Shown: positions 19,229-53,416 of the stretch, in pieces
How positions within the stretch are numbered: the stretch's first letter is position 1
Layout: every line of letters begins with the position of its first letter
From: Eledone cirrhosa
Taxonomy: Eukaryota
Direction of reading: 5' to 3'
Assembly: GCA_964016885.1 (NCBI GenBank)
Contig: OZ024741.1
Coordinates: 61,070,001-61,134,000, forward strand
DNA: 64,000 nucleotides
The notes under the pieces: generated by a model
What the model saw: the letters and a program-made list of their open reading frames with translations, nothing else
Told to the model about the DNA's origin: nothing
Databases searched by the model: none
Position numbers and translations under genes: made by a program

Positions 19229-19333
19229 CAGTTACAGCTTTACGTCATGTCATATCAAGTTGAATTATCAATTCATATGAAATGAATAATAAAAACGCAA
19301 ATATCAATATTCATGAATGAGACATAGATATAT

Positions 19334-19516
19334 AATTGTTTCTACTTTAGGCACAAGGCCAGCAATCCACCAGTGCATTACTGGTACTTTATTTTATCGA
19401 CCCCGTAAGGATGAAAGGCAAAGTCAACCTCGGCGGGATTTGAACTCAGATCGTAAAGGGACGTAACTATGCTGGAAAGGATGGCGTCCGACCCTCTACC
19501 GATACTGCCAATCCAT
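19334..19516 (-). mobile_element. tRNA-derived SINE
   Basis: Same family as the 3007 and 9808 copies. Confidence 0.85.
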
Positions 19517-21201
19517 AGATATATAATATGAGAAAATAACATTGTTCAATAATGACCATATGTTTAGTTTAAAACTCTGAGGTCAATATACCAAAATCTG
19601 AGTTAAAACCTTCAAAAATTACCCTATTTATAAAAATACGGATACATATATGTGTATATATATATATACACGCATATGTACATTCTGAAAAAAGAAAAAA
19701 GAGAAAATTATGTCTAACTCTAGTCAATAATATAGACATACAAATGACTTCACCTGATCACTTCTATAATTTCTTGTGTTATAAAAATTTCACTGTATAT
19801 ATACATAAAATATACGATTAATATTCATGTCCTCACATACATGATTACCGTTCATGTATTTAATAATTATGCATATCTGTACCACACATCAACATATACA
19901 CACAGAACCATACATATATATATATATATATATGTATAAAATATCTGCGTGAGTTTTCCAGCACCGTTACGCACATATACAGACATATGAACACATAAAT
20001 AAACTCTATAAACCTTTTATATGCATGTTAATACACACAGATGGCCTTTGTATAGAGATAATCAAATATCAATATATTAACACAGAAATATCAAAGCATT
20101 AAAATACTTTTAACACACTAGAGAGTATCTCATGCCAAAACAATATGCTTCATATATTTATTATAGAAATCTATCCTACCTATATCTCAAACAGGGTAGA
20201 CATATGAAAGTTATTAGAAGCTATCAGAGTCAAAAAACAAATAAAAAGCAAAAATTATTTAAAAGATTTAGAAGACCCAGTGATTCTACGGATGCCCTTA
20301 TATTTAGTATAGAAATTTATCTTGCGTAAAATTTATTTAATACATTGGGAGCATATACATTTTAGAGTAGTTTATTATATCTTTGTTTATATTTAGGAAG
20401 AAGGTTTAAAAAGAAAAAGGTGAAGGAATCAAATGATTTATCGTCAGGTTTCATATATTAACTAAATTTCTTAATTAATTATACTACATTTTAAATTTAT
20501 ATTTATATTTAAACGTTGAGTTCAATCTATGTCTGCAGCAACTGAATAAATTGCTCCTTAAATTAAGGGAATTTTTGGACTTTAATATAAAGAATATTTC
20601 CTCCACACAGAGATCACATGTCTCTGATGAGGAATTAAAAGGAATCCCTTTTGAGACAATATTCCAAAACATCGAATACTTAACATTATCTCGTTTAAGG
20701 TGCCAGAGTAGGCTTGATAGCGAAGTGAGGATTTTTTGTTTGGATCTGTGAAAGAATTCTTATGATTATTGAAGCGAAGTTTAAATTCTGTCGAGGTGGA
20801 ACCAACATAGTTGAAAGAATTTAAGTTAGTTTTAACATTACAATTGTACACTACATTTTTAGCTAAGCAATTGTTATTTAACGGACAGTTAGATTTATTT
20901 CTACAGTTACAGTTATTTAATTGAATATTGTTTGGGTTATTATTGGTATTTTGATTAGGTTTTAAATTCCTATTATTAATTCTGTTAATATTTTGTGCTA
21001 AACTTTTGGTGGACGAGTAAGTTAATTTTATAGTGTGTCTATTAAAAATTGATTGATATGTATGTGTTCTAGGGAAGCGTTTGTCAAGAACATTAAAGAA
21101 TAGTTCGTATATCGTATATCTACTCCAAAAACTTGTCGAGTGCTTTATATCAGTTATAAAATATTTACTTGTTGTACCCCAACAATTTTAAATAAAACTT
21201 T

Positions 21202-25092: not shown

Positions 25093-25822
25093 GGTGGATT
25101 GGCAGTATCGGTAGAGAGTCCGACACTATGCTTTGCAACATAGAGTTACGGCCTTTTAAGGTCTCAGTTAAAATCCCGCCGAGGGTAACTTTGCCTTTCA
25201 TCGCTATGGGGTCGAAATAATAAAGTACCGGTAATGCACTGGGTAGTTGCTGGCCTTGTGCCAAAAGTAGAAACAATTATAATTATTAGAGCGGTGGATT
25301 GGCAGTATCGGTAGAGCGTCGGGCAGCATGCTTAGTGGAATTGAGTTACGGCCCTTTATGTTCTGAGTTCAAATATCGTCCAGGTTAGCTTTGCCTTTCA
25401 CCCTTACGTGGTCGATAAAATAAAGTACCAGTAATGCAGTGGAGCCGATTTAATCGACTTTCCCTTTCCCCAAAAATTGTTGGCCTTGTGTCTAAATCAG
25501 AAACTATTATCATAATGATTTGCCCTTATCGAATCGAGAAAATTACGTACCAGTAACGCACTGGAGTCGATCTATGCCCCCCCCCCCCCTAAAGTATTGG
25601 CTTTTTGACTAAATCAGAAATATTATTTGTCATATGGAGGTGAATTGGCAGTAACGTTAGAGTTACGTCCTTTTACATTCTGAGCTCAAATCCCGCCGGA
25701 GTTAGCTTTGCTTTTCATCGTTACGGAGTCGATAAAATAAAGTACTAGTACGCACTACCGTCGATTTAATCAACTTTCGCCTCCCCCAAATGTTTGACTT
25801 TGTTCCTAAATCAGAAACCATT
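25093..25822 (+). mobile_element. Cluster of three tandem tRNA-derived SINEs (25093-25280, 25289-25510, 25636-25822) plus a partial copy
   Basis: Each begins GGTG(G/A)ATTGGCAGTA and carries the GTCGATAAAATAAAGTAC core. Confidence 0.8.
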
Positions 25823-26194
25823 ATGATTATTTGTCAAATTTATAATATTTGGCTAATTGTGTGGTACAATGTATATATTTTATTGAAAACGATAGGGTCA
25901 ATTTCATCTATTAAATAGTCATATATTTAGGTTTGTAAAATGAGATTTTTTATTTCTCTAGCGATTCAATAGTTTTGAAAAAGATTTTAACCTGACATTT
26001 ATTACTGACACCTTGTTTATGGTAATAAATTGTTGACTTTCAGTCAAGAAACTATGTAGAGATTTATTCCTGTACTTCTGCCAACGATGGGATGAATGCA
26101 CAACACAGATTGACGCTTTACACACACACACACGCACACACAGAAGCACACACACACGCGCGCGCGCGCGCGCACACACACACGCACACATATG

Positions 26195-26467: not shown

Positions 26468-26552
26468 TAGATAGATAAAAAGATGATAGAAAGATAGAAA
26501 GATAGAGAAGCAGATAGAGAGACAGATAGATAGATAGATAGATAGATAGATA
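26468..26552. repeat. (GATA)n tract at the 3' end of Tx1 copy A
   Basis: Direct reading. Confidence 0.95.
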
Positions 26553-26553
26553 T

Positions 26554-28670
26554 GTTTCTTTTATTTGCCACCAGGGCATCAAAATTGGGACAAGTACAAT
26601 GGGGGGAGTTTACAAAACAAGGCGTCCTCAATAGGGAGGAGGCAATAACAATATATAAAAATAAAATAAAATATAACAAAAAATCAAATTTATAACAAAG
26701 TCCTCAATAGAGAGAATGCGCCTTGGGGGGGGTCGCACACACCCCCGAAAAGAAGTGTGCAACCCTTTTCCTCGGGAGCACAGAGAGGGGGTGCTCCCTT
26801 GGTCTTTCATCTTCCTCACCTATAGTCTGATGTAGAGTGAAGGCCCATTCACACCGGCCATTCTCGCCACTTTCATCCATCTTTCATAAAAACGGCTGGG
26901 GTGCAGCACCTCTCTCTCCATCCTGATCCTTCTTCCGAAATGATATCGGAAGAATCGGACCAGTTGTTGGCCAGAGAGAAAGGTGTCTGACCTCAGTCCT
27001 TTCAGACACGTCCACCATACAACCTCTTTCGCCATGGCTATTACGCACAGAAACACCGCCTCTTCTTCGTTTTTGAAGAGGGGAGGCGGCTTGATCGTTA
27101 CAATAGACTCGGTGGTAAACCGGATCGGTCCCACCCTTGACAGCAGTTGTTCGACATAGCCCCACAAATCGGCAATGCCCGAGCAGTGTACCAATGCGTG
27201 TGCAACGGTTTCCTCGTCGCACACGCATCTGGGACAGATCTTTTTCGAGGGGTCCCTACCCGGGCGCCCGTGTCTGTAGAGCCTTTCTCGAACGGGCAGA
27301 GCCCTTCTGTAGCATTGCCAGGCCAGGGACCTCTGGAAGTTGTCCATGGGTCCCGGGCTGAATGTCCTACCGAACAGGTTAGCCAGTTCGTCTTCCTCCA
27401 TGCCTAGGGCTTCTCCGAGGGCGTCGTCGCACCTGCTAACCACCAGCCCTCTATAGAATGACGAGGTGGATTCTCCACTGACAGCCGGGTCCGCCTGCCA
27501 GAGAGCCGTGAGCGCCTGGGCACACTCGGTGTGCCAGGCGCCCAGTTTTCTCGGTCTTTGCTTGACCCAGGATTGCAGCTCGGTGAGTGAGACGAGTCTG
27601 GGAAAGGCTCGTCTCACAAACGGGGCCCACACCGGTTGACCGGAGAGGAATACCTGAAGGTGCCGTAGCCTTAATGCGTGTTTACGTATCATTAGCCACG
27701 GCATCCCCAGCCCTCCTTTCGAAGGGTGTTGACAGCAGATGGATCTCCTCACCATAGGAGCCCGCTTCTTCCAAAGGAATTGGAAGAGTGCGCGCTCCAT
27801 TTTGGCGAGCGTTTCCCTTGGGCAAGGCACAACGGTCAGACGGTAGTAGATGACGGACGCTATATAAGTGTTCGCCACCTCCGCCCGACCTTTCAGGGAC
27901 AGTTTGCACTCGGCCCACTTCTGGGTCAGTGCAAACACCCTGTTCGTTACCTCACCCCAGTTCTTCTCCACCTGGAGGTCTGGTCCGAACCAGACCCCGA
28001 GCAACTTCACCGGGCCCTCCGTCCAGCGCCCGACGACGCCATCGGAGTGCATCGATCTGCCCCTCCACGTGCCGAGTTGCAGACCGATCGACTTGTCCCG
28101 GTTCAGCTTAGCCCCTGTAAACCTTTCGTACTCCTCCAGTAAGGTGCCGATCGCCCCGATTTCCGAGGCCGTCGACACCATTACTGTTACGTCATCGGCG
28201 TAGGCTGACACCGCTTTCCGCAATCCCGGTTCCAACGGGATGCCCTGCAACAACTTCAAATTCCGCAGCAGTGGCTCTAGCGTCATTACATACAGAAGGG
28301 AGGAGAGAGGGCACCCCTGTCGGATGGACCGCGCGATTTCGAACGGCTCCGAGAGGTAGCCGTTCACCTTGACCCTAGAGCAGATGCGGCTGCTGTGCAT
28401 GGCATTGATCCAGCCCCTGAAAACGGGTCCGAAGCCTGCCGCCGCTAGCACCGCATCCAGGTAACCATGGTCGACCCTATCGAATGCCTTAGATTGATCC
28501 AAGTTGATCAGGGCCCCACCAAAGCCGGGTTCGTTCCCAACCCTCTCTATGATGTATCGCATGAGGTGGAGGTTGTCGTGGATGGACCTGGACGGGATAG
28601 CACATGTCTGCGCATCTCCCACTAGGTTGCTCACGACAAGCGCCAACCCCTTTGCTAGCACCTTGGCCAA
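26554..28670 (-). mobile_element. Tx1/L1-clade non-LTR retrotransposon, copy A (5'-truncated within RT)
   Basis: Open 616-aa frame with LDQSKAFDRV, RQGCPLS, YADD and C-terminal CPRC..ETVAHALVHC; 3' UTR with AATAAA followed by (TATC)n. Confidence 0.95.
26820..28670 (-). CDS. ORF2 C-terminal part (RT plus CCHC) of copy A
   Basis: RT motifs as above; truncated at the (GATA)n junction, no native start. Confidence 0.85.
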   Translation of the reverse strand: MAKVLAKGLALVVSNLVGDAQTCAIPSRSIHDNLHLMRYIIERVGNEPGFGGALINLDQSKAFDRVDHGYLDAVLAAAGFGPVFRGWINAMHSSRICSRVKVNGYLSEPFEIARSIRQGCPLSSLLYVMTLEPLLRNLKLLQGIPLEPGLRKAVSAYADDVTVMVSTASEIGAIGTLLEEYERFTGAKLNRDKSIGLQLGTWRGRSMHSDGVVGRWTEGPVKLLGVWFGPDLQVEKNWGEVTNRVFALTQKWAECKLSLKGRAEVANTYIASVIYYRLTVVPCPRETLAKMERALFQFLWKKRAPMVRRSICCQHPSKGGLGMPWLMIRKHALRLRHLQVFLSGQPVWAPFVRRAFPRLVSLTELQSWVKQRPRKLGAWHTECAQALTALWQADPAVSGESTSSFYRGLVVSRCDDALGEALGMEEDELANLFGRTFSPGPMDNFQRSLAWQCYRRALPVRERLYRHGRPGRDPSKKICPRCVCDEETVAHALVHCSGIADLWGYVEQLLSRVGPIRFTTESIVTIKPPPLFKNEEEAVFLCVIAMAKEVVWWTCLKGLRSDTFLSGQQLVRFFRYHFGRRIRMEREVLHPSRFYERWMKVARMAGVNGPSLYIRL

Positions 28671-28932
28671 ATAGATAGATAGATAGATAGATATATTTCT
28701 TTATTAGCCACAGGGGCACAAAAGAAGGGGACAAATACAAAGGGGGAAGTTTACATACAATAAAAACGTGTAAAATGTTATCACAGATGGAATTTAAAAG
28801 TTAGTCGATTTTCCCCAATAGAGGGAGACAGTTTATATGGGTAACACATACCCCCGAAAAAAATGTGCAACCCTCATCTCCAGGAGTACGAAGAGCTTGT
28901 ACTCCTTTCCTCTCCTCCTCCTTTTCCTCAAT

Positions 28933-31900
28933 CTACAGGCTGATATAGAGAGAAGGCCCATTCACTCGGGCCATTCTCGCCACTTTCACCCACCTTTCAT
29001 AAAACTTGCTGGGGTACAGCACCTCTCTCTCCATCCTGATTCTTCTTCCAAAGTGGTATTTGAAAAAAAGAATCAGTTGTTGGCCGGAGAGAAAGGTGTC
29101 TGACCTCAGCCCTTTCAACCTTGTCCACCATACAACCTCTTTCGCCATAGCTATCACACAAAGGAAAACCGCCTCTCCTTCGTTTTTGAAGGAGGGTGGC
29201 GGTTTGATCATGACAATGGACTCGGTGGTCAACTGGATTGGTCCCACCCGCGACAATAGTCGTTCTACATATCCCCACAGGTCAGTGACGCCCGGGCAGT
29301 GTATGAATGCGTGCGCGACGGTTTCTTCGTCTCGCACGCACCTCGGACAGATCTTTTTTGCAGGGTCCCTGCCCGGGCGCCCATGTCTGTAGAGTTTGTC
29401 TCGAACTGGTAGAGCTCTTCGGTAGCACTGCCAGGCCAGGGACTTTTGGAAGTTGTCCATCGGTCCCGGGCGGAAGGTCCTACCGAACAGACTGGCCAGT
29501 TCATCTTCCTCCACGCCTAGAGTTTCACCGAGCGCGTCGTCGCACTTGCTGCGGACCAACCCTCTATAGAATGACGAAGTGGAGTCTCCACTGATCGCCG
29601 GGTCCGCCTGCCAGAGGGCTGTGAGCGCCTGAGCACATTCGATGTGCCAGTCGCCCATTTTCCTCGGTCTCTGCTTGACCCAGGACTGCAGCTCGGTCAG
29701 TGAGACGAGTCGTGGGAAGGCTCGCCTCACGAACGGGGCCCACACCGGTTGTCCGGTGAGGAATACGTAGAGATGCCGCAGCCTGAGCGCGTGTTTGCGC
29801 ATCGTCAACCACGGCATCCCCAGCCCTCCGTTAGAAGGGTGTTGGCAGCAGATGGATCTTCTTACCAAAGGAGCCCGCCTCTTCCAAAGGAATCGGAAGA
29901 GGGCGCGCTCCATTTTGGTGAGCGTTTTGGCTGGACAAGGCACGACGGTCAAGCGGTAGTAGATGGCGGACGCTATAAAAGTGTTCGCCACCTCCGCTCG
30001 ACCTTTCAAGGATAGTTTGCACTCGGCCCACTTCTGGGTGAGTGCAAACACCTTGGCCGTCACTTCGTTCCAGTTCTTCTCCACCTGGAGGTCCGGACCA
30101 AACCAGACCCCGAGCAGCTTTACCGGTCCTTCCGTCCAGCGTCCGACGACGCCATCGGAAGGCATCGGTCTGCCTCTCCACGATCCGAGTTGCAAACCGA
30201 TGGACTTGTCCCGGTTCAGCTTCGCTCCTGTGAGACTTTCGTATTCCTTTAGTAAGGTGCCGACTTTCTCGATTTGCGAGGCGCTCGACACCATTACTGT
30301 CACGTCGTCGGCGTAGGCCGACGCCGCTTTCCGCAGTCCCGGTTCCAGAGGGATGCCCTGCAATAGCTCCAGCTTCCGCAGTAGTGGCTCGAGAGTCAGT
30401 ACGTACAGAAGGGAGGAGAGAGGGCATCCCTGTCGAATGGATCGCGTAATATGGAACGGCTCCGAGAGGTAACCGTTCACCTTGACCCTTGAGCAGATGT
30501 TGCTGTTGTGCATTGCAGCAATCCAGCCCCTGAACACGGGTCCGAAGCCTGCCGCCTCGAGCACCGCATCCAGGTAACGATGGTCAACCCTATCGAAAGC
30601 CTTAGACTGATCCAAGTTGATCAGGGCCCCACCGAAGCCGGGTTTACACCCTACCCTCTCTATGATGTATCGCATGAGGTGGAGGTTGTCGTGTATGGAC
30701 CTGGTCGGGATCGCGCATGTCTGCGCTTCTCCCACCAGGTTCTCGACGACAAGCGCCAGCCTCTTTGCCAACACCTTGGCCAAAATCTGTAACTCTGTGT
30801 TTAGCAGAGTTATGGGCCGGAAGTTGCCTATGTCATCCCCCTTATTCTCGTCCTTCCTGATTAGTGTGACCACGCTCCCGGTTACAGAACTGGGAATTCT
30901 CCCGTTCTGTTGCCAGTTGCAGTAGACCGCTTCCAGGAGACCGGAGAATAAGTCCGGCATTGCTACGTAAAATTCGTAGGGTAGACCGTCGAGACCTGGA
31001 GATTTGCGTTTGCCGCATTGGCTCAGCGCGTCCCCTATCTCAGTGGCTGAAATCGGCTTTTCGCAGAACTTCGCTGTCCGAGAGTCGCGGTAGGCCGTCG
31101 AGGTATGGACCGAAATCCATAGCCTCTCCCGGCGCGCCGCTCCCCCCGAACAGCCGAGCAAAGTGCCGCTGAAAAGCCGCACACATCTGCTTCGGCTCAC
31201 GTATCACGCGTCCGTTTTGGTCCTTCAAAGACCGAATCGTGGACTTGTTGCCACTTTTTGCCTCCGTCACTCGGGCCCAGCTAACAGCTTTGGCTCCCTC
31301 GTTTCCCAGAGCACGTATTTTGCTTCTGACAACGCAGCCCTCGTGCTTCGCGTCGAAGAACTGGTCCAAGGCCGTTCTCGTTGCTAGCACGCTGGCTACG
31401 TTGCCACTTCTAATAGCCTCTTCTACTTTATCTACCAGTTCCTTCTCGGTTCTATTTCTATCTAACGGTAATTCTTTACTAAAAACTATCGAGTCTAATC
31501 TAACTGCCCTCTTGAGAGAGTACCACCATCTGTTGTTGACAATGGCCCCTGTCAAGTGCTGTTTAACTAAAGTGCTAATCCGTCTACTGTAGGCTTTGCT
31601 TGTCGGTAACGACAAGTTCAGCTTCCAGTAGCCGGGTCCTTGTCTATGGGTTCTATCAAGGTTGGCCATGCAGGTCACTAGTTTGTGATCTGAATAGGCA
31701 ACCATGAACATTTGTGGACAGCTTAACATGTCCCTATCCTTATTTCTAACTAGAACCCTATCTAGGTACGATCTAGATGTTCCGCTACGATTACTCCACG
31801 TCCACAGTGGCGCAGTCGGAAAATCTAGTCGATAACTATCGGCCAGGTCAAATCGGTCGATTAACTGTTTGAGGCTGTTACACCCCCCTTTATCGGGACA

Positions 31901-32365
31901 TGCTCCCACATAGTCCCAACGTGCATCTAGGATTCCATTCCAGTCCCCCACTAAAAGCAAGGAGCGGGACGTTCCCAGAAAAGTCTCTAGACGTTTGAAG
32001 AAGTCTGGCCGCGGTGTCCCGGATGGGGCATATGCGGCCACCAGCCTGAACGCTCCACCTTCACTACCGTCAACGTCTAGGACCACCAGTCGACCCTCCG
32101 GGTCCAGATGAACCGTCTGTGTTACGAGGCCCAGGTGTTTCCGCAGCAAAACGGCAACTCCGCCCCCACCCCCCGGTTGACAGAGAGATGCGTAGATCTC
32201 AAAGTCATCGAAGATGGGGGCCAGCTGTCGCTCGCCGTGGATCCTGGACTCGCAAATGGCTACCACATCCAAACTGTGCGACCTGAGGTCGTTTAAGAGT
32301 TTGCCCTGTTTCCAGGGCATCCCCAGGCCGCGTACGTTCACACATCCAACTCTTATATTGGCCAT
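28933..32365 (-). pseudogene. ORF2 of copy B (APE endonuclease, RT, CCHC) with one frameshift near 31070
   Basis: NVRGL, ICESR, GDWNG, YLDRVLV, SDHKLV (APE); KSPGLDG, FRPITLLN, YADD (RT); split into 441-aa and 755-aa ORFs. Confidence 0.9.
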
Positions 32366-32398
32366 GTTGGTGCTGAAAAGTTAAAAGAGGAAAAGAGA

Positions 32399-34315
32399 TC
32401 ACTCACCCTTCGCCTCCTGGGGACCAGGCCGCACGATTTCCATGGGGGTGTTGGAGGGGTTGTCTGGATGGGTGGTGGTTTCCGGCGGGGTGGGGACGCA
32501 GATGTTTGGTGGGGTGGGATCTGGTGGGATGGGGGTGTCTGGGGTGGGGAGGCATTTGAGAAGGACGCGGTTGAGTGGTTTCACGCAGGAATTCCCCACA
32601 TCCTTCTCAAATGTTTCTTTTAGGGACCTATAAGTTTGTATAGGGACCCTAATCAGTTTTAGGTTCATTTTTTTGCTATTTTTTATAGAGTGGGCGAAAG
32701 TTTTCCCTTCGGTGAAAACCGAAGGGTCGTTCGTAATGGTCTCCATTAGTGTTTTGTTTTCAGTGTTTATGTAAGTGTAAGTGTAATTTTCTTGTGTTGT
32801 GTTTGTTTTTGTCTGTAGTTCTTGTGTGTGCTTTCGTTTTGTTGTAGGTATTTTGTTTTCAGGAGGTGGAGGTTTTGTTTGTGATATTTTTGTTGTTTGT
32901 GTTGGTGGTTGTATGTTTGTGGTAGTGTTTGCTGGTTTTTTGCTTTTGTGATGTCTTTTCTTTCTTTTCGAGCGATGGGGTTCTCCCTCGTCTTCACTGG
33001 GTGATGGCGAGATAGCCTCATCTGTTGTATCGTCTGTGTGATTGGGGAGGGGTATGTCTTGGGGAGCTGTTGTGTCTGTATGTGATTTTGCAGTGGTTTT
33101 AGGTGGAGTGAGGTTGGGTGGGACTGTGTTTGTTGTGGTTATTTTTGTGTGTTGGTGTTGTTGTTGTAGTTGTGGTGTTGGTGGTTGTGTTGTTTTGATG
33201 GGTGTTGGCAGAAGAGCCTTTTTTTGGTTCATTAGTTTAGGACAGGAAGCCCTCAGGTGACCCCTGCTAAAGAAATGGTAACATGAAGGCCGCCTACCCT
33301 CAACCGAAAGGTTTATGTAGGTAAGTCCGTCCAGGAGTACACGCTGTGGGATCATAGCTATTCGCTCTGGGCTCATTTGCACCAGAACTTCAATGCTAGT
33401 CCCATTGAATACATCTCTAGGGGACTTGCCTACTGACAGTATTCTGTCTTCATCAAAATTGATGAAGCCGCACAGTATCCACCATATGTTCACCTTTGGT
33501 GTGACACTTGTGATTCTGATCTTTTGTGTCCTTTTTCCCATGTATGTAGGGAAAAAGGTGTACAGGTTGGATACAATTGGCGACACAGAGTAATTTTGGG
33601 CCTTCAATTGATCCTTCATCAGTACCGAAATACTCCCAAAAAGTTTGCTTCTTTGAATGAATGCAATATCATTCATTGAATCTTTGAAAACCAGTTCAAT
33701 ATCTTTCTGTGACAATTGGACTGGTTTTCGGGTAGAATTGGAAACTGTCCTAAAAACTATCGTTTTGAGAGCAGTTTCCTTGCGAATTTCTACCGGAGAA
33801 TTGATGCTGAAAGCACCATTTTTTTCGAAGGTGACATATCTCTTAGCGTCCTTTAAAAGGTGTTCACCATTTGTTATGTCGAGATATATCAATTGTTCTT
33901 TCTTTTGAACTTTCTCCGCAAAGGAGATTTTTGGTTTCTTTGTGGAATCCGTATTGGTGGTGTTGTCATTATTGTTGTTATTCTTGTTGATATTCTTGTT
34001 GTCACCGATGTTGGTATCATCCGTATTTTCCTTGGTGTTGTTGTTGTCTTTGATGCTGGTGTTATTGGCGTTGTCTTTATTTTTTTCTTTGTTGTTGTTA
34101 TCATTGTTGCTTTTATCATCATTATTGGTTTTGCTGTTATTTTTGTTGTCATTGAGCTGTTTGGTGTCATTTGTGTTGTTTGGATGTGAATTCGTTTTTT
34201 TATTTTCATTTTGTCTTTCCATCTCTATAGTATCTAGTGAAGAAGACGTTGTTGACTGCGAGCTTTGTAGTCTTACCGCCTCTCCACCACCATTATCGTT
34301 GGACGCAGCGTTCAT
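32399..34315 (-). CDS. ORF1 of copy B (gag-like nucleic-acid-binding protein; zinc knuckle mutated)
   Basis: 638 aa; SFAEKV motif, VEGRRPSCYHFFSRGHLRASC (second Cys replaced by Phe), Asn/Thr/Pro-rich tails; homologous to 38953-40848. Confidence 0.85.
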   Translation of the reverse strand: MNAASNDNGGGEAVRLQSSQSTTSSSLDTIEMERQNENKKTNSHPNNTNDTKQLNDNKNNSKTNNDDKSNNDNNNKEKNKDNANNTSIKDNNNTKENTDDTNIGDNKNINKNNNNNDNTTNTDSTKKPKISFAEKVQKKEQLIYLDITNGEHLLKDAKRYVTFEKNGAFSINSPVEIRKETALKTIVFRTVSNSTRKPVQLSQKDIELVFKDSMNDIAFIQRSKLFGSISVLMKDQLKAQNYSVSPIVSNLYTFFPTYMGKRTQKIRITSVTPKVNIWWILCGFINFDEDRILSVGKSPRDVFNGTSIEVLVQMSPERIAMIPQRVLLDGLTYINLSVEGRRPSCYHFFSRGHLRASCPKLMNQKKALLPTPIKTTQPPTPQLQQQHQHTKITTTNTVPPNLTPPKTTAKSHTDTTAPQDIPLPNHTDDTTDEAISPSPSEDEGEPHRSKRKKRHHKSKKPANTTTNIQPPTQTTKISQTKPPPPENKIPTTKRKHTQELQTKTNTTQENYTYTYINTENKTLMETITNDPSVFTEGKTFAHSIKNSKKMNLKLIRVPIQTYRSLKETFEKDVGNSCVKPLNRVLLKCLPTPDTPIPPDPTPPNICVPTPPETTTHPDNPSNTPMEIVRPGPQEAKGE

Positions 34316-34532
34316 AACGTAATCAAAATTTTACAATATTTTTTCCAAGATTCGATGGAGAAAAATTTTTTAAATGGATATTCCGCCCCTGAAGGGGCGA
34401 AAATGAGTTGACCCACCACCTGAAGGTCCAGACGGGTGGTCAAGTTACACAATGATATAAAATTGAACTAAAAACTCACGTTTTTTCCTTACATAAATTA
34501 ACGGAAACTTCTCCGCGAAGTGACACACGACT

Positions 34533-34539
34533 GATAGAG

Positions 34540-34603
<64 letters not shown>

Positions 34604-34660
34604 TTCTTTATTAGCCACAAGGGCGCAACAAGAAAGGGGACAATACAAAGACATGCCGGG

Positions 34661-34753
<93 letters not shown>

Positions 34754-34796
34754 ACAGATACATATATAGATAGATAGATAGGTAGGTAGATAGATA
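34533..34796. repeat. (GATA)n tracts enclosing Tx1 copy C
   Basis: Direct reading. Confidence 0.95.
34603..34660 (-). mobile_element. Tx1 copy C (58-bp extreme 3'-end stub)
   Basis: tttctttattagccacaagggc..aaggggacaatacaa matches the 3' terminus of copy B (28696-28740). Confidence 0.8.
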
Positions 34797-35251
34797 TCTT
34801 TCTTTATTTTCCACAGGAGTGTACAAAAATGGGACATTACAAGACGGGGGTTTTACATAAAAATCATATAACTTTAACATTAATAAATAACAATAAACTA
34901 TATATAATAAAATTACAATTGAAAAACCCAGTAGGGGGGAACGTTACTGCAGGGTTGTTTTACACCCCGTGGATAGAACAACCCTCAACACCAGGAACTC
35001 GTTTTGTAGGTGTTCCTGTCTTCCCTCTGTTTATCTTCCTCAAACTACAGGTTTATATACAGAGAAGGCCCATCCACTCGGGCCATTTTCGCCACATTTA
35101 CCCACCTTTCAGCGAATTTACTGGGGTGTAGCACCTCTCTCTCCACTCTCACCTTCCTTCTGAAGTGGTACTTAAAGAAGGGGATAAGTTGTTGTCCGGA
35201 GAGAAAGGTGTTTGCCCTCAGTCCTTTTCACCTCGTCCACCATATTACCTC
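34797..35251 (-). mobile_element. Tx1 copy D (455-bp 3' fragment)
   Basis: Encodes EVIWWTR..ERWVNVAKMARVDGPSLYINL* plus a 3' UTR with AATAAA; bounded by GATA repeats. Confidence 0.9.
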
Positions 35252-35492
35252 GATAAGTAGATAAATAGATAGATAGATTTCTTTATTTACCATAAAGGCA
35301 TAAAAAGAAGGGACAAATACAAAGGGGGAGTTTACATATAATCGAGTAAAAAGGGTGTAACATGAAAATAATCGAAAATAACCTCAAAAGGGAGGGGACG
35401 TGATGGGGGTTGCACACACCCCCGAAAAAGTGTGCAATCCTTTGCCCGGGTAGCACATGGAGAAGGTGCTCCCCTCTCCTTTACTTCTTTAC

Positions 35493-38400
35493 CTACAGGA
35501 TGGTATACAGAGAAGGCCCATTTACACGAGCCATTCTCGCCACTATCACCCACCTTTCATAAAACTGCCTGTGGCCAAGCACCTCTCTCTCCATTCTTAT
35601 CCTTCTTCCGAAGTGATATCGGAAGAAGTAGACCAGACTATGGCCAGAGAGGAAGTTGCCTGACCTCAGACCTTTCAATCGTGTCCACCAAACAACCTCT
35701 TTCAACATGGCTATTACGCACAGAAAAACCGCCTTTGCTTCCTTTGTGAAGAGAGGAGGCGGTTTGATTGTCATCACGGACTCGGCGGTCAATTTAATCG
35801 GCGCCACCCGCGACAGCAGTTGTTCGGCGTAGCCCCACAGATCAGCCACGCCCGGACATTGCACCAATGCGTGCGCAACGGTTTCTTCGTGACGCACGCA
35901 TCTAGGGCAAATCTTTTTTGAGGGATCCCTGCCCGGGCGCCCGTGTCTGTAGAGCCTCTCTCGAACGGGTAGAGCCCCCCGGTAGCACTGCCAGGCCAGT
36001 GACTTCTGGAAGTTGTCCATTGGTCCTGGGCCGAAAGTCCTACCGAACAGGCTGGCCAGTTCGTCTTCTTCCATGTCCAGCGACTCTCCAAGGGTGTCAT
36101 CGCCCCTGCTAGCCACCAGCCCTCTATAGAATGCTGAGGTGGATTCTCCACCGATGGCCCGGCCCGCTTGCCAGAGAGCCCTGAGCGCCTGAGCACACTC
36201 AGTGTGCCAGTCTCCCAGTTTTCCGGATCTTTGCTTGACCCAGGACTGTAGCTCGGTGAGCGAGACGAGTCTCGGAAAGGCTCGTTTCACGAACGGAGCC
36301 CACACCGGTTGACCAGTGAGGAATACCTGTAGGTGCCGTAGCCTTACGCATTATCAACCACGGCATCCCCAGCCCTCCTTTCGAAGGTTGTTGGCAGCAG
36401 ATGGATCTTCTCACCATAGGAGGACGCTTCTTCCAAAGAAATTGGAAGAGCATGCGTTCCATGGTGGTGAGTGTTTCCTTAGGGCAAGGCACGACAGTCA
36501 GGCGGTAGTAAGTGACGGACGCTATGTAAATGTTCGCCACCTCCGCCCGGCCTTTTAGGGACAGCTTACACTTGGCCCATTTCTGGGTTAGTGCAAACAC
36601 CTTGTTCGTAACCTCGTTCCAGTTCTTTTCCACCTGGAGGTTCGGTCCAAACCAGACCCCAAGCAACTTTACCGGGCCCTCCGTCCAGTGTCCGACGACA
36701 CCGTCAGGAGGCATCGGTCTGCCTCTCCACGTTCCGAGTTGCAGCCCGATGGATTTTTCCCGGTTCAGTTTCGCTCCTGACAACCTTTCGTACTCCTCCA
36801 GTAAGGTACCGATCGCCTCGATCTCCGAGTCGGTCGATACCATTACTGTTACGTCATCGGCGTAGGCCGACACCGCTTTGCTCAATCGTGGTTCCAGGGG
36901 GATACCCTGCAACAACTCCAACTTCCTCAGTAAAGGCTCGAGAGTCAATACGTACAGAAGGGAGGAGAGAGGGCACCCCTGTCGAATGGATCGTGTGATT
37001 TCGAACGGCTTCGAAAGGTAGCCGTTCACCTTGATCCTAGAACAGATGTGGTTGCTATGTAGGGCAGTGATCCAGCCTCTGAAAACAGGACCGAACCCAG
37101 CCGCCGCTAGCACCGCATCCAGGTAACCATGGTCGACCCTATCGAAGGCCTTAGACTGATCTAAGTTGATCAGGGCCCCACCGAAGCCGGGTTTGTTGCC
37201 AACCCTCTCTATGATGTATCGCATGAGGTGGAGGTTATCGTGAATGGACCTGGATGGGATAGCACATGTCTGCGCATCTCCCACCAGGCCTCCCACGACA
37301 AGCACCAACCTCTTTGCTAACACCTTGGCCAAAATCTTTAACTCTGTGTTTAGCAGGGTTATGGGCCGAAAATTATTTATATTATCCCCCTTGTTCTCGT
37401 CCTTCCTCACCAGCGTGACTACGCCCTTGGCTACAGAACAAGGAATTCTCCCGTTCTGCTGCCAATTGCAGTAGACCGCTTCGAGGAGTTCGGAGAAGAA
37501 GACCGGCTTTGCTAAATAAAGTTCGTAAGGTATACCATCGAGACCTGGAGATTTGCGTCTGCTGCATTGGCTCAGCGCATCTCCGATCTCATCAGCCGAG
37601 ATTGGTCCCTCGCAGGACTCTGCCTCTTCGTTCGAGAGACGCGGCAGGTCGTCGAGGTATGGACCGAAATCCACGCCCCCGCCTGGACCCTCGCCTCCCC
37701 CGAACAATCGGGCAAAGTGCCTTTGAAAGGCCTCGCACATCTGCTTAGGCTCCCGGATCACCCGTCCATCTTCGTCTTGCAACGACCGGATGGTGGATCG
37801 ATTTCCACTCTTAGCTTCTGTCACGCGGGCCCATCCAACGGCTTTGGCCCCCTCATTACCTAGAGCACGTATTTTACTTCGAATGACGCAGCCTTCGTGC
37901 TTTGCATCGAAAAACTGGTTCAAGGCCGTCCTCGATGCCAGCACTCTGGCCACATCTTCGCTCTTGATTGCCTCTTCCAATTTACCTGTTAATTCTTTCT
38001 CGTTTCTATTCCTATCGGCAGCTAACATCTTGCTATAACTTATTGATTCTGTTCTAATCTCTCTTTTGAGAGATGCCCACCATCGGTTGTTGACGATTGC
38101 ACCCGTCAACCTCTCCTTAACTAATCTGCTAATCCGGTTTCTGTAAGTCTCTTTTGCCGGTAAAGACAAATTAAGTTTCCAGTAACCGGGACCCTGTCTA
38201 TGTGTTTTCTCGAGATTGACCACGCAGGTCACTAATTTGTGATCCGTGTAGCCAACCGTGCGCATTTCTGGACAGCTTAATATGTCCCTATCCTTACTTC
38301 TAACTAAGAATCTATCTAAGTACGATCTAGATTGACCACTGTGGTTTCTCCAAGTCCAGGTAGGCACAGTTGGAAAATCTAGTCGATATCTATCGACCAA

Positions 38401-38919
38401 GTTAAAACGGTCGAGTAACCCCTTGAGGCTGTTACACCCCCCTCTATTAGGACATGCTCCTGCATAGTCCCAACGTGCATCCAGGATGTCATTCCAATCC
38501 CCCGCTAGAAGCAGGGAACGCGACGTTCCCAGAAAAGTCTCCAAACGCTGGAAGAAGTCGGGCCGTTCAGCTCCGAAAGGGGAGTAGACGGCGACCAGTC
38601 TCAAGGCCGCACTTTCACTACTGCCAACGTCTAGCACCAACAAACGACCCTCCGGGTCCGAGTGCACAACCTGTACGGCAAGACCCAGGTGTTTTTGCAG
38701 CAGTACGACAACCCCACCCCCACCTCCAGGTTGACAGAGAGATGCATGCACCTCAAAGTCATCGAAGGTGGGGGCCAGCTGCCGCACGACGCTGATTCGA
38801 GTCTCACAGATAACCATTACATTTATACTACATGACCTGAGGTCATTTAGAAGCTTTGCTTGCTTCCAAGTTGAGCCCAGGCCACGTGCATTCAAACATC
38901 CTACTCTTAACACATCCAT
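35493..38919 (-). pseudogene. ORF2 of copy E (APE, RT, CCHC) with an 11-nt deletion frameshift near 36344
   Basis: 906-aa and 270-aa ORFs; comparison with copy A shows loss of ttaatgcgtgt. Confidence 0.9.
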
Positions 38920-38952
38920 GTGGGCGGCAGAGCCAAAGGAGAGTGTAGAGAC

Positions 38953-40848
38953 CTACCTTTCCGCTTCCCGGGGTTCGGGTTGCACGACTTCCATGGGGTC
39001 GGGGGTGTTGGGTGAAGGGGTGTCTTGTGGTGGTGTGGGGTCGTCAGTGTGTGGTGGGGTTGGGGTGTTTGGAGTTGTGTTGGGGAGGGGAAGGGGAGGG
39101 GGAAAGCTTTTTAGTAGGACGCGGTTTATGGGTTTGACAGAGGGTGGTCCTACGTCCTCCTTAAAATCCTTTTTTAGTTTTTGGTAGAGGTTCATTGGGA
39201 TCTTTATTAGTTTTAAATGTGGGTAGTTTTCTGACGAAACAAAGTTTACACCTTCGGTTTGTACCGAAGGATTATTGTATATGAGTTCATTTAATTTATT
39301 ATTGTTTCTGTTGATGTAAGTATAGTGTAATGTCTTTTTTTCCGATGGTGTGAGTGTTTCGAAGAGGGGAGGGGCAGGTTTGGTTTTGTTTGTTGCTGGA
39401 GGGGTGTTTTCTGTTTTGTTGGATTGTGTTGAGATTTGGGTGGGGGTTGTTTGTCCTTGTGTGTTTTGCACATGTTTTCTTTTTTTCCTTTTAATCTGTC
39501 TGAAGGACTCCGTTTCTTCCTCCGAATTAGTTGGGTTATCTTCAGTGTTGGAGGGAAGAGGTATGTTTGCTGGTAATGTTTCCGTGTTGGTTTTCTTTGT
39601 GGGGGAGATGGATGTCACTATGTTAGACTGTGTTGTGTGTTGTGTCTGCGGTGGTTGTGTTGTTTTATTGAGTGAGAGGTTGGGTGGGCCTGTATTTTGT
39701 TTTGGGGTAATGTGTTGTGACTGTTTGTGTTGTGGTGGTGTTGTGGTTTTACTGAGGGACGGGTTGGGTGGGACTGAGTTTTGTTGTTTGTTTATCTGTT
39801 GTGGTGGTGGAGCTGGTGGTGGTAGCAGGGTTTTCTTTTTGTTGAGTTGGGGACAAGCGGCCTTCAGGTGCCCTCTGCCTGCACAGATATGGCAGGACGG
39901 CCTTCTCCCCTCCACGCTAATGTTTATATACCCGTGGTCCTCTAATAGGATTCTGTCGGGTATTTGGGCGATGCGTTCAGGCTTCATTTGTACTACTAGC
40001 TCTATACCTGTTCCACTGAACGCATTGCCTGTGGTTTTCCCAATGGAAATCACGTTGTCATTCACTGGATCGATGAAGCCAGCTATGAGCCAGCAGTAGT
40101 CCACATCTGGCATCATTGCATCCAGCCATATGCGTTGAGTTCTTTTCCCCATATAAGATGGATAAAAGGTGAAATTTTTCGAACGAATCGGTGACAAAGC
40201 ACATTTTTTTGCCGCCGATTCGTTCTTCATGATAATTGCTAGGCTTCCATACAGTCTGTCTTTTCTTATGAAAGTGGTTTCATTAAGTACTTCTGTGAGT
40301 ACTGTTTTGATATCTGCTTGAGAAGGCTGTTCAGGTTTTTTTGTACTGTTGTTGATGGTCCGAAACTTGACCGTTCGGCTTTCAATGTCTTTCGTGAATT
40401 CTTGAGGCATTTTTACCGATAAAATACCATTCTCTCCTTCACTTATGTATTGTTTGGCGTCCGTGATCCTTCGTACCACATCTGAAATGTTTTCCGCTAT
40501 ATAAGTCAAAGATTTCTTTGTTTTCTGTGCAAATGAAATCTTGTCGTCTGCTTTGTTTTCTGATATGGTGTTATTTTCAACTGTTATTTTTGTGTTTGTT
40601 GTGTCTTTGTTTGTGTTATTAGTATTGTCATGCAATTTTTCAAATTTTTTTTTTTCGTTGTTGGAATCCAAGTCCAGATTTGTGTTTTCGTCATTTAATT
40701 TTTTCTCCGCAGATTCGTCTGTTTTTATTTTAATTTTTCCTTCCTTCTCTATGACGTTAGTTGGGAAGGAAGGGAGGACTAAGGCGTGCGAGCTTACAAC
40801 TCTTACCGCTGTCCCCCCACCACTATTTTCGTTCGCTGCGTTTAACAT
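38953..40848 (-). CDS. ORF1 of copy E (gag-like, intact CX2CX4HX4C knuckle)
   Basis: 631 aa; VEGRRPSCHICAGRGHLKAAC. Confidence 0.85.
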   Translation of the reverse strand: MLNAANENSGGGTAVRVVSSHALVLPSFPTNVIEKEGKIKIKTDESAEKKLNDENTNLDLDSNNEKKKFEKLHDNTNNTNKDTTNTKITVENNTISENKADDKISFAQKTKKSLTYIAENISDVVRRITDAKQYISEGENGILSVKMPQEFTKDIESRTVKFRTINNSTKKPEQPSQADIKTVLTEVLNETTFIRKDRLYGSLAIIMKNESAAKKCALSPIRSKNFTFYPSYMGKRTQRIWLDAMMPDVDYCWLIAGFIDPVNDNVISIGKTTGNAFSGTGIELVVQMKPERIAQIPDRILLEDHGYINISVEGRRPSCHICAGRGHLKAACPQLNKKKTLLPPPAPPPQQINKQQNSVPPNPSLSKTTTPPQHKQSQHITPKQNTGPPNLSLNKTTQPPQTQHTTQSNIVTSISPTKKTNTETLPANIPLPSNTEDNPTNSEEETESFRQIKRKKRKHVQNTQGQTTPTQISTQSNKTENTPPATNKTKPAPPLFETLTPSEKKTLHYTYINRNNNKLNELIYNNPSVQTEGVNFVSSENYPHLKLIKIPMNLYQKLKKDFKEDVGPPSVKPINRVLLKSFPPPLPLPNTTPNTPTPPHTDDPTPPQDTPSPNTPDPMEVVQPEPREAER

Positions 40849-41087
40849 TTCTGTTAGACGATTGAAATTTTTTACACAAAATTTTTTAAAACAGGTTTTT
40901 CACCTCTAGGAGGGGTAAAGATGAGCTGACCCACCGCCTGACAGTTCAGACGGAGGGTCAAGCTACACAATTGTATCAAAATTAAGTTTGAACTCACAAA
41001 ATTTCCTCAATAAATTTGAACAAAACTTCTGTGCGAAGTGAATGACATCCACACTGTAGAACAGACGACAGCTAGATGAGTAGATAA

Positions 41088-41124
<37 letters not shown>

Positions 41125-46604: not shown

Positions 46605-47889
46605 GGTGGGGCATAATTCATGTTACAAAGTTTAAATCAATTTAAAAATACATTATGTTGCTAATATAACTAATATATTTGTATCAAATCCATGCACTAT
46701 AACCATATTAACTATTGTTCAGAACATTACTCCATTAACAATTTGCAATGTCCATAGAATTGAAAAGAAAGTTCATAATGGAGAAGCATGAAAAAGGCCT
46801 GACTCCACCCAAGATATTTAAACTGGGGAAAATTCTTAAGATCAATAGAATGTTGATCAAAAGGACAATCGATCGATTTAAGGAAACTTCCTCGATCAAA
46901 GACAGACCTCGATCCAGACGCCCTCGCACCTCAAGAACACCAAAACTCGTTAAAAATGTGAGGGAAAAAATAAGGCGTAATCCAAGAAGGTCCATGAGAA
47001 AAATGGCAGAAGAAGCAAAAACATCGCCGAGAACTATGCGGAGGATATGTCGAAATGATCTGGGGATGTCACGCTCTAAGTTCCAAAAGAGGGAGCTTCT
47101 TTCTGCAGCCACAATTGAAAAGAGGCTCTCCAGAAATAAACTGTTATTGAACTGTATCAATGATGGCACGCTGCAAAATATCATCTTTACAGAAGAGAAG
47201 TTATTCCCTGTGCAGCAGTCTCACAATCATCAAAATGATCGAGTACTTGCAAAAAGTCTCAAATCAATTCCTTCAAGTGTAGGAAAAGTGTTCAGAACAC
47301 AGAAACCAGCATCAGTGATGATTTGGGCAGCCATTTCTGAAAGAGGTAAGTCTCCTCAAGGAGTTAAAATTAACAAAGAACTTTACATAAAGGATATTTT
47401 GGAAGGAGCACTGATGCCATAGTGCATATCTGTTTATGGCGATGACATTTGGACTCTCCAACAAGATGGAGCGACGAGCCACACTGCTTGCATAACACAA
47501 CAGTGGTGTAGAGACAATTGTCCTGCATGGTTCAGTAAGGAAGAGTGGCCTCCCACATCACCAGATCTCAACCCTCTCGATTTTTTTTTATGGTCAATTC
47601 TTGAGAGTGAAACCTGCTCTACTCCTAGCCAAAATATTGAAACTCTAAAATCAAAACTGAATAAAGTATGGGAGAAAATACCCATGGAAACTGTTCGTGT
47701 AGTCATCGAAGTCTTTCCTAGAAGACTTCCAGCGGTGGTGAGAGTTAGAGGAAAGCATTTCGAATAAATTTTTGTGCAGTTGTTTAATAGTATATTACTT
47801 ACTATTTGTTGGAGTCAGATCTTGAAATAAATGTTTTTTTCAAGAACTATTTGCATTTTATTTTGTAACAGTGTTTATGCCCCACCCTG
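46602..47889 (+). mobile_element. Tc1/mariner superfamily transposon, DD37D (maT-type), full length
   Basis: TIRs CAGGGTGGGGCATAA / TTATGCCCCACCCTG with TA flanks; 1288 bp. Confidence 0.92.
46748..47767 (+). pseudogene. DD37D transposase with an in-frame stop at 47420-47422
   Basis: IIFTEEKLF (first catalytic D reads E), VMIWAAIS, QQDGATSHTA..WPPTSPDLNPLDFF with 37 residues between the second and third D. Confidence 0.88.
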
Positions 47890-48529: not shown

Positions 48530-50404
<1,875 letters not shown>

Positions 50405-51436
50405 TAAGATCAAAAGATGGTTAAAAGAGTTCCAAGTATTTTATTATGCGCATTTCAAAAACAAATAACATCATGCGATGACATTTGCGTTTTCGTCAGA
50501 TAAAATAGGGAGACGTGATATGAAGGTTAAAAACACTTGTGAATAGTGCAGTTTTAAATCAACATATGAAAAGTACTTTTAGATTGATGTGTGATATTGG
50601 GGAAAAAAAAAATTGAATAAGAAAAACAAAAATTTATTCAATTTGATATTGCCAGCTACTATTCTTCTATTTCGCTCTTACTTCTCAACAATGCTCTATC
50701 TTTCGCTTACAAATATTCAGACATCACCACAGATGAACTTCACATCATTCTGACCGCACGTAAAACCATCCTAGAGTTCAACAATGAATATTGGACCAGA
50801 GCTGATACCTCTAACAACTTTGACATCACAATGGGAGCATCCGATTCAACCCAATTGACAGATTTAAATAATATCTTTATTTTGAACTCTTTGAATCGGA
50901 AAATTCCTCAACTTCGTGGTGGACTTTATAGTGACGAAGGACTCTTTACTATCTTAAATTGCAACATAGTTAACCTTAATATTATTAAGAACAATATACG
51001 TAATCTCTTTAACCAACATAACTTAAAAATTGAATTTGATAACAGCATCAAACTAGCTAATTTCTTGGATGTATCTCTTAATCTTGACACTGGCCTATAT
51101 TACCCTTACCATAAAAACAATGAGAACCTAAATTATGTTAATTTTAAATCTAATCACCCCACTAATATTAAGAATGCTAAATTTAGTAATATTGGAAAAA
51201 GAATATCCAACCTATCATCTAATAAAAACATCTTTGATGCTAACGCCAATTACTATAATAACGCGCTTTCTAAAGCCGGTTATCCTGATAAAATCAAATA
51301 TAGTAAAGAAACAAATTCTAGAAGATCTTACAGTAGAATAATTAATCATGATCATTCCAATAACTTTAATAAAAGACCTAGATACAAAAACATATTCTGT
51401 TATAATGCTCCTTTCTCCATCTCTATTAATAATAAT

Positions 51437-51621
51437 TGTTTCTACTTTAGGCACAAGGCCAGCAATTACCAGTGCATTACTGGTACTTTATTTTATCGAC
51501 CCCGTAAGGATGAAAGGCAAAGTCAACCTCGGCGGGATTTGAACTCAGATCGTAAAGGGACATAACTATGCTGAAAAGCATGGCGTCCGACCCTCCACCG
51601 ATACTGCCAATCCACCGCCCT
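51437..51621 (-). mobile_element. tRNA-derived SINE inserted in the PLE ORF with a 15-bp TSD
   Basis: TCTATTAATAATAAT (51422-51436) / TCTGTTAATAATAAT (51622-51636). Confidence 0.88.
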
Positions 51622-53416
51622 TCTGTTAATAATAATATTCCTAAATTATTCTTTAGTGCCTTAAATAAATGCTCCCCTCCCTCACATATATATAGTAAAA
51701 TATTTAACAAACACACTATAAAATTTTCCTATTCGACCTCCTCCAACATCTCCAACATTATCTCTAAACACAACAATAAAATACTAAATACTAAATCTCT
51801 TCCTTCCAACACTGAATATCATAATAATAGTAATAGTTCTCCCGACGTCATTGTTAACTCTAGGCTAATTTCTGCAAACCCAAATACAACGTCAAACGCA
51901 ACTTCATTAAATGTTCTTAATCCCATTCTAAATCAAGAAACTATTATTCCTATCGTAAATAACTTCTCCAATCCAATTCCTTCTATAGATAACACTAGGT
52001 CACTTGTTAATAACTCTGTTAATTTCTCTAATCGCAATTGTAATTGCCCTGTTAAAAATAAATGTCCTCTCAACAACCATTGTCTTGAAAAAAACTTAAT
52101 CTACGAATGTAAAGTTATAACTGACACCAATTCCTTTAACTATTTTGGCTCCACTTCCACCTCCTTTAAAGCTCGTCTTTATAATCATCATTCGTCTTTT
52201 AAATACCAACTTAAAAGAACCAACACGGCACTCTCAGAATTCATATGGTCCTTGAAAGACAAAAATATTAACTATAACATCTCTTGGAGGAAGGTTTGTT
52301 CTGCTTCTACATACTTGAATGGTTCTCTATCCAAGACATGTAATCTCTGTTTATGTGAGAAATTTACCATTATATCTAATTTAGATTCTATTATAAATAG
52401 ACGCACTGACTTGTTTTCTCTCTGCTTGCATAAATTCCACAGAACATTCTATAAAGTATACAGCTAATATCTAATACTTTACTAATTTAAAATCCTTTTC
52501 TCAAAGGCATATATATATATATACATATATATTTCTTTAAAAATATATCCATCTTTCTATCTTATTTCAATGTTATTTATTATACATTATATAATACTAG
52601 TTACTCATTCTATATCACTCCTATTTATCACTTCCCTTTCTTTATTTTTTCTTTTTCTTTTAATTTCTAACCTCTAATCTATACCTTTTCTTCCTAGATA
52701 CTTCTCAATTCTCATTATTACTCACCACAATATATCCTTACCCTTTTAAATACTTTATAATATCACCTTGAAAAATTCTTCGTAAACATAAACATTTTTT
52801 GACGTTAGATTATTCATCCTCAATTCATTATTTTTTTCTCCCTTCCATGCACATCTAACTTATACATCCACTTATTCATCCACTCTTCTACTTATTTTCA
52901 CAATATATCCTTAATTACATTACTATTGTTATATTTTTATATTTTTTTAATTTCTTTCCATCGCACATATTATTAAACCCTTAAATATTATTCTTAATAC
53001 ATATTAACAATTTCTTTTCATCGCACATATTATTAAACCCTTCAATATACAAACCTTAATTTAACATTATTCTAAAATTTTTCTCTTCGTTAATTTTCAA
53101 ATTCTTTTAATTTATATATTATCTTCCAACGGTTTTTTAACCTCTCTATGTAAAACAATATATTTTTCTCAGTTATAATAGCTATCTCTCTCTCTATATA
53201 TATCACCCATCTCTCCTCCTATATCATCCTTCCTTTACTATACTCCTCCCCCTCCATTCTTTACTCTCATCTACTCCTCGTTTTCATCCTTTCCACACCC
53301 ACAACCCCTCAATTTTTTTTTCCCAATATCACACATCAATCTAAAACTACTTTTCATATGTTGATTTAAAACTGCACTATTCACAATTATTTTTTAACCT
53401 TCATATCATGTCTCCC

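Follow-up and report, generated by a model that had tools for sequence, protein, structure and literature searches.

The genome of Eledone cirrhosa (3.0 Gb) harbors a large, young group of L1/Tx1-type long interspersed nuclear elements (LINEs) that insert into GATA microsatellites, which read (TATC)n on the sense strand of the element in the sampled junctions that carry them. Five copies of this group, named A to E, are stacked in the 64,000-nucleotide stretch analyzed here (the window; G000:C2:61070001-61134000), and the full-length copies B and E represent the two families followed genome-wide. A degenerate pattern for the 3' end of the group gave 24,834 matches in the genome, compared with 167 for the reversed control. 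Targeting of GATA microsatellites by this group is established; it is a preference that is leaky rather than strict. These elements, which encode an apurinic/apyrimidinic endonuclease (APE), probably enter (TATC)n/(GATA)n, with target-site duplications of 13-21 nt, through an ORF2 endonuclease that would nick the GATA strand at or near a TpA step, and through a repeat-like 3' end of the RNA that would anneal to the nicked strand and prime reverse transcription.

The 5' flanks were assessed in copies taken in order of position to avoid the bias of score ranking, with the E copies drawn from the list for C1 and a second set skipping the loci already taken. A flank passed if the 30 nt preceding the five first bases of the element itself contained at least two TATC units. 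This was the case for 26/30 E copies of the first set and 36/40 of the second, i.e., 62 of 70, and for 28 of 30 B copies. Genome-wide, TATCTATC was found within 24 nt of the 5' end in 319 of 381 minus-strand E copies; this pattern may borrow three element bases and gives one match per minus-strand copy, and the forward-strand matches (1011, multiple per copy) were excluded. Copies truncated at the 5' end, leaving out those whose boundary ran beyond the locus, had TATC at their 5' flank in 2/3 and 9/12 cases, giving 11/15. Among score-ranked copies inspected by eye, TATC repeats preceded 30/30 E copies (30 of 40 listed) and 29/30 B copies. An earlier note on this DNA had named unique, non-GATA 5' flanks of solitary copies as the observation that would speak against its proposal of GATA targeting; this did not come true, as copies elsewhere in the genome mostly have TATC at the 5' side. 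In comparison, only 689 of 318,800 random positions (0.22%) passed the two-unit test, and for an abundant short interspersed nuclear element (SINE), taken on either strand, the figure was 4 out of 80 flanks. In 160 kb of random DNA, 196 (TA)n, 49 (CA)n and 13 (TC)n tracts were counted vs. three of (TATC)n. PMC4494074 describes a sequence type present in more than 20% of flanks as a preference, and the proportions in the position-ordered E (62/70) and B (28/30) copies lie above that value.

On the 3' side, the sequence ATCTAT continues after the first four bases at 18,357 of the 24,834 group ends (74%), and at least two units were present in the 3' flanks of 25/30 position-ordered B copies, rates that exclude a score-ranked query which itself contained four repeat bases. 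A run of 10 A was found at none of 230 distinct 3' ends, and neither (TTCC)n nor (TTTC)n occurred in the bases after 230 3' ends. The four bases that follow the 3' GAA differ between subfamilies, with ATCT (68) and ATAT (30) in E, ATAT (43), ACAT (13) and ATCT (5) in B, and ATTT (7/8), ACAT (6/6) or AGAT (3/4) in others, which suggests that a worn repeat unit may be carried by the RNA. At locus L339, one ATCT unit on the 3' side has no counterpart in the 5' flank. In the 3' flanks of L046 and L346, directly behind the element, a TATC tract and a GATA tract adjoin each other on one strand in a palindromic arrangement.

Duplications that include non-repeat bases were observed at 36 of 75 full-length E loci with both ends. 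The target-site duplications at the 29 loci retained are 13-21 nt long (median 18) when the four bases that directly follow the 3' GAA are left out of the count; as whole repeat units are assignable to either side, some lengths could shift by 4 in either direction. Each of the 29 opens with AT, and the base before it is T. Since TATC units lie upstream of duplications that contain non-repeat bases, such units do not come from the RNA, and the repeat pre-existed the insertion. These duplicated target sites refute the idea that the repeat is a 3' tail alone, with the 5' repeats supplied by the tails of upstream neighbors or by the RNA leader and insertion otherwise random. We regard this explanation as highly improbable, although 27/70 E and 19/30 B 5' ends lie at most 150 nt behind the 3' end of another member, repeat-like bases occur at both element ends, and L175 combines a unique 5' flank with (ATCT)11 on its 3' side. 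Loci L208, L217, L314, L315, and L330 have no upstream neighbor, yet display TATC upstream of duplications ending in unique bases, and the truncated copies with 5' TATC are leaderless. Moreover, landing so frequently in the tails of neighbors would be targeting in itself.

The two families differ in how their 5' ends join the target. The 5' leader of B holds zero, one or two worn units; in 30 B copies, these were CTCT in 15, CTCTCTCT in six, another unit in one and none in eight, and the join to the repeat is seamless. The irregular bases in the B 3' flanks are mostly not duplicated, as judged by eye (L168, L172, L344, and L347; partly duplicated in L349), a result that annealing of the cDNA end to the repeat, followed by trimming of the overhang, would predict. 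The E joins, by contrast, are pure repeat in just 5/70 copies, and full duplications are kept together with 0-7 extra bases. B would accordingly be joined seamlessly by homology and E with a few extra bases. At the 5' junctions of L337 (1-150) and L007/L127, the first bases of the element occur in tandem, as two runs of about 24 nt in L337 and with a 9-nt unit in L007, which points to template jumping as reverse transcription ended. At L302, a B-like copy holds an E insertion in its 5' leader, which is duplicated; members of the group therefore use one another's leaders as targets.

In the window, the five copies lie head-to-tail on the minus strand, interspersed solely with the GATA-type repeat, which also flanks the two outer ends of the stack (26468-26555 and 41079-41122). 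The tract at 26468-26555, on the 3' side of copy A, is a degenerate (TATC)n whose first unit is the variant ACAT. Copy A (26556-28672; 2.1 kb) is 5'-truncated in the reverse transcriptase (RT) and retains a partial RT, the C-terminal zinc finger and a 3' untranslated region with AATAAA and without poly(A). A spacer of an ATAT unit and (ATCT)5 (28673-28696) separates its 5' end from the 3' end of the full-length copy B (28697-34538). B carries ORF1 (about 32399-34312; two RNA recognition motifs (RRMs) and a CCHC knuckle whose second Cys is replaced by Phe) and ORF2 (28933-32365; APE, RT, and zinc finger), which is frameshifted near 31073 by a 5-nt gap. It is 99.5% identical to other genomic copies, and its leader holds the worn unit CTCT. 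The tract (TATC)15 (34539-34603) leads from the 5' end of B to the 3' end of copy C (34604-34660), a 3'-terminal fragment of 57-58 bp from a different subfamily that is 100% identical to a piece of locus L273. Next come (TATC)23 and worn units (34661-34799), then copy D (34800-35252), about 455 bp long, 5'-truncated and with AGAT as its first unit. The full-length copy E (35279-41077; 99.0% identical to its best genomic match) contains a 648-aa ORF1 frame (38953-40899) and an ORF2 (35493-38922) that is frameshifted near 36346 by an 11-nt gap, so that ORF2 is interrupted in both full-length window copies. E is flanked by a perfect 19-nt duplication (35256-35274 on the 3' side, 41079-41097 on the 5' side), the latter lying with the outer (TATC)8 tract in 41079-41122; it is therefore an independent insertion into the repeat at the 5' side of D.

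The arrangement of the stack thus agrees with that given in the earlier note, including the GATA repeat beyond the outermost 5' end, which the note had taken to show that the repeat is not a mere 3' tail, a conclusion upheld by the duplicated target sites. Its view of the copies as independent insertions of several subfamilies, based on their differing 5' truncations and differing 3' UTR and ORF1 sequences, gains from the E duplication and from the divergence of the copies: identity over ORF2 is 78-85% among A, B, and E, D shows 72-81% identity to these three, and the ORF1 proteins of B and E are only 36-39% identical. A tandem duplication of the stack was rejected on these two grounds, the 19-nt duplication of E and the divergence of A, B, D, and E. 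Likewise, the statement that the copies sit in GATA and not in the commoner (TA)n was reproduced, with six of the seven (GATA)3+ arrays of the window in the stack vs. 88 (TA)6+ tracts in the window. The one (GATA)3+ tract outside the stack (172-195) lies inside a (GA)n run, and no 3' end of the group was found there. Stacks need no additional mechanism, as each insertion leaves repeat at both sides.

With exact patterns, 1,371 3' ends and 759 5' ends of E type and 5,536 3' ends and 117 5' ends of B type were counted. The E numbers point to a full-length share that is high for a LINE, a rough estimate given that the two patterns differ. Five more types of 5' head follow TATC repeats, and where the sequence extends far enough, they are followed by homologues of ORF1 or ORF2; ORF1 identity is 38-65% for four of these heads and 96% for one B-like head. 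Both ORFs are intact in 15/36 E and 9/20 B copies ranked by score, and six intact B loci share 99.0-99.8% mutual identity. Because intact copies are near-identical and none of 31 position-ordered E copies is intact, the group consists of a young intact subset and a decayed majority. Words sampled from E were present at a fraction of 0.22-0.54 in runs labelled as three other organisms, and tandem junctions with a GATA spacer were found in an organism-C contig and in reads of another organism-A sample. At G000:C1:348917513-348929355 (L008-L010), three full-length E copies in tandem have identical 5' junction bases, and this array therefore likely stems from duplication or a multimeric transcript and not from three insertions.

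The age structure bears on whether the pattern could arise after insertion, with random integration followed by passive retention in GATA tracts through selection or low recombination. A precedent has been suggested for Drosophila Waldo elements near CA repeats (in the account given by PMC3812793). However, the youngest copies, with 100% identical 5' ends and many of them ORF-intact, show the pattern most strongly, and (TA)n tracts outnumber (TATC)n about 65-fold (196 vs. 3 in 160 kb), yet are seldom used. In addition, the junctions are strand-specific and in register with the repeat. We therefore give retention the least credence of all explanations considered.

Pfam assigned Exo_endo_phos, RVT_1, and zf-RVT to ORF2, i.e., an N-terminal APE endonuclease, an RT and a C-terminal zinc finger, and the catalytic residues of the APE align with those of the L1 endonuclease (EN). 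The best relative among solved structures is human L1 ORF2p (179 bits), with R2 at 64-75 bits; two fish proteins, one a TX1-named protein of catfish (331 bits) and the other Danio BAC82609.1 (320 bits), give ORF2 scores far above the 179 bits of human L1. Pfam searches of entire ORF1s gave no domain match at an E value of 0.01. The predicted ORF1 model (pLDDT 74) resembles tandem RRM proteins, with two RRM-like domains and a CCHC knuckle; zf-CCHC was matched in 7/7 ORF1s, with a score under the curated cut-off for the member shown. ORF1 thus appears to be of type I (RRM and CCHC knuckle), unlike the Transposase_22 ORF1 of mammalian L1, and type I ORF1s in animals have been linked to Tx1 in the portion of PMC5203782 consulted.

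The hallmarks of the L1/Tx1 group are present, namely the APE/RT/zinc finger ORF2, the 13-21 nt duplications at 29 loci and truncated copies. Among named proteins, the nearest come from Argonauta hians (61% and 67% identity), in keeping with an octopod host; relatives in that species include GAB1597330.1 and GAB1601854.1. In a quick, unrooted tree, built with no L1 outgroup or Repbase reference elements and leaving out P0126 for short coverage, E, B, and an Argonauta protein grouped together (99), with unnamed proteins as the sister group (100) and the vertebrate Tx1-named group next (SH-aLRT 98), a position that is suggestive only. On protein sequence, membership of the Tx1 clade is likely. 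The sister group (P0049-P0083) is a large set of ENA/JGI proteins of like length (about 1,150 aa) that are 49-54% identical in the RT. No named Kibi, Koshi, or Keno protein was among the matches listed in the protein searches.

In the mechanism that we consider likely, the APE domain of ORF2 would prefer CT|AT(C/A)T on the element sense strand and would nick the GATA strand at or beside the TpA step. The nick may fall at 5'-GAT/AG-3' or one base off, because the junction keeps the element's A where the element has ATAT and the site CT. A read-through (AUCU)n RNA end would anneal to the nicked strand and prime reverse transcription, and a second nick about 18 nt away would produce the target-site duplication. 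Each insertion would split the tract in two and leave repeat on both sides, so that later copies could land beside earlier ones and form stacks. The worn repeat units at both element ends suggest that annealing between RNA and target assists the nick at the TpA step. Specificity set by the nuclease has been reported for TRAS1, SART1, R1Bm, and Tx1L, as far as the consulted portion of PMC1919474 goes, and that of PMC7265360 reports that target-like RNA anneals in the case of SART1 and R1Bm.

Alternatively, priming could be the main source of the specificity if the endonuclease nicked TpA broadly and only nicks whose 3' end pairs with the (AUCU)n RNA tail were extended. This would fit the presence of ATCTAT after the junction in 200/230 ends, the sites L317, L152, and L213, which match downstream only, the insertions into (TA)n, the absence of poly(A) and the L1-like length of the EN loop. 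However, among 12 ATAT-type copies with a resolvable duplication, CT precedes the duplication in 10 by eye, although the element would put AT there, a count that is confounded at sites within long tracts. The C two bases ahead of the duplication cannot be paired by the RNA, which favors the nuclease, as annealing alone does not explain it. Moreover, L310, L338, and L144 were inserted with clean duplications although merely 2-3 bases after the junction are common to the tail. Specificity set by priming is accordingly a minority possibility in our view, and we infer that the endonuclease is the determinant. The earlier note had proposed an APE with a strand-specific preference for (TATC)n/(GATA)n; the flanks and the strand bear this out, the preference is leaky, and RNA annealing likely contributes alongside the putative role of the nuclease.

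A number of observations weigh against GATA targeting by such an endonuclease. The two-unit test was failed by 8/70 position-ordered E 5' flanks and 4/15 truncated copies, and only 19/30 position-ordered E copies had at least two units in the 3' flank. The insertion site is (TA)n for L209 and L215, and unique DNA offering no more than T|ATAT for L310 and L338; L175 has the unique 5' flank mentioned above. Some copies occupy a lone CT|AT site, and a few sites are TC-rich (L213, L098, and L281). No resolvable duplication was obtained for 39 of the 75 E pairs, and seven of the other 36 were set aside because they are tandem copies or consist of repeat throughout (L125, L128, L136, L209, L318, L324, and L326). 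Duplications were short or absent at L157, L158, L054, and L175. Furthermore, the EN hairpin loop has the length found in L1, lacks the two extra residues of the Tx1L loop and gives no direct sign of special recognition.

A more speculative reading, to which we assign a low probability, is that the group is a self-feeding parasite that makes its own target: beyond the splitting and duplication of tracts upon insertion, repeat units on both RNA ends would seed new (TATC)n at plain (TA)n, and a large share of the GATA microsatellites of the genome would be element-born. As leads, 24/52 listed tract starts lie at most 80 nt behind a group 3' end, and the 27,717 tracts of at least four units, an undercount in one phase for which the reversed pattern equals the repeat itself and offers no control, nearly match the 24,834 3' ends. 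At L175 (G000:C2:349862203-349868553), an intact B copy is followed by (ATCT)11 where the paralogous host repeat (L296:2620-2640), presumably Penelope-like, has (TA)n; in this comparison with a single paralog, about 940 bp of the host repeat are missing at L175. Against this reading, the copies L310, L338, and L215 at TA-rich sites gained no ATCT unit.

Microsatellite targeting by Tx1 elements is already known, and what is new, as far as the papers searched go, is the target (TATC)n and the scale. The teleost Tx1-clade LINEs Kibi and Koshi are reported in (TC)n and (TTC)n, respectively (PMC4494074, PMC3812793, in the parts consulted). Like them, the present elements are APE-type Tx1-group LINEs inside a microsatellite, whereas the target is a tetranucleotide repeat and the host an octopod. 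Crocodilian Tx1 group 2 (Tx1-1_Crp, Tx1-2_AMi, and others) is described at (TTCC)n/(TTTC)n in section 15 of PMC4494074, likewise a tetranucleotide microsatellite that is preferred and not an absolute rule; the sense strand of those targets consists of pyrimidines alone, whereas the target here contains A, and about 25,000 3' ends are present here. Waldo (ACAY), Mino (AC), and Dong (TAA) in the corresponding text of PMC3812793 and Togen (TG) in that of PMC4640811 are also microsatellite-targeting non-LTR elements, but fall in other clades, either R1 or lineages with a restriction-like endonuclease, and use other repeat units. R1Bm and SART1 similarly combine an APE endonuclease of short recognition motif with annealing of a target-like RNA 3' end (PMC1919474, PMC7265360, as excerpted); they differ in belonging to the R1 clade, in targeting 28S rDNA and telomeric repeats and, for SART1, in using a poly(A) tail, which is absent here.

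In Octopus vulgaris, 80 L1-Tx1 families, 13 of them recently active, have been reported (PMC13282606). They are of the same repeat class and may include relatives of the present families; the main text of that paper contains neither 'target' nor 'GATA' and describes no target preference in the part consulted. The consulted portions of PMC3747384 and PMC8869645 name no further microsatellite targets. No GATA/TATC-targeting LINE was found in the literature searched, a search with Repbase, Dfam, subscription papers and the supplements and Fig. 3 target labels of PMC4494074 outside its scope.

Elsewhere in the window, there are many copies of a SINE-like repeat (3007-3205, 9802-9994, 19324-19515, 25093-25520, 25658-25831, 51419-51637, and 56169-56873), which is abundant and was seen in most of the random loci as well. 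ARAGORN predicted one tRNA-Ser(GGA) at 1537-1609 (+), which may be a SINE head. The frames 46739-47419 (+), 50621-52464 (+), 48915-49598 (-), and 20585-21187 (-) resemble, by eye, what we take to be the N-terminus of a Tc1/mariner transposase and fragments of Penelope-like RT/GIY-YIG proteins.

Our findings add a new repeat and, likely, the cephalopods to the known range of microsatellite targeting by Tx1-type LINEs. Roughly 25,000 copies, seven or more types of 5' end and intact members that are near-identical make the group an unusually rich natural data set on site choice and joining by APE-type LINEs. The contributions of nuclease and RNA annealing, and the two ways in which sister families join their 5' ends, can be tested directly in it. 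The group also provides a candidate site-preferring insertion enzyme. Finally, the results bear on the origin of GATA microsatellites, and GATA markers in these animals may lie in retrotransposon flanks.

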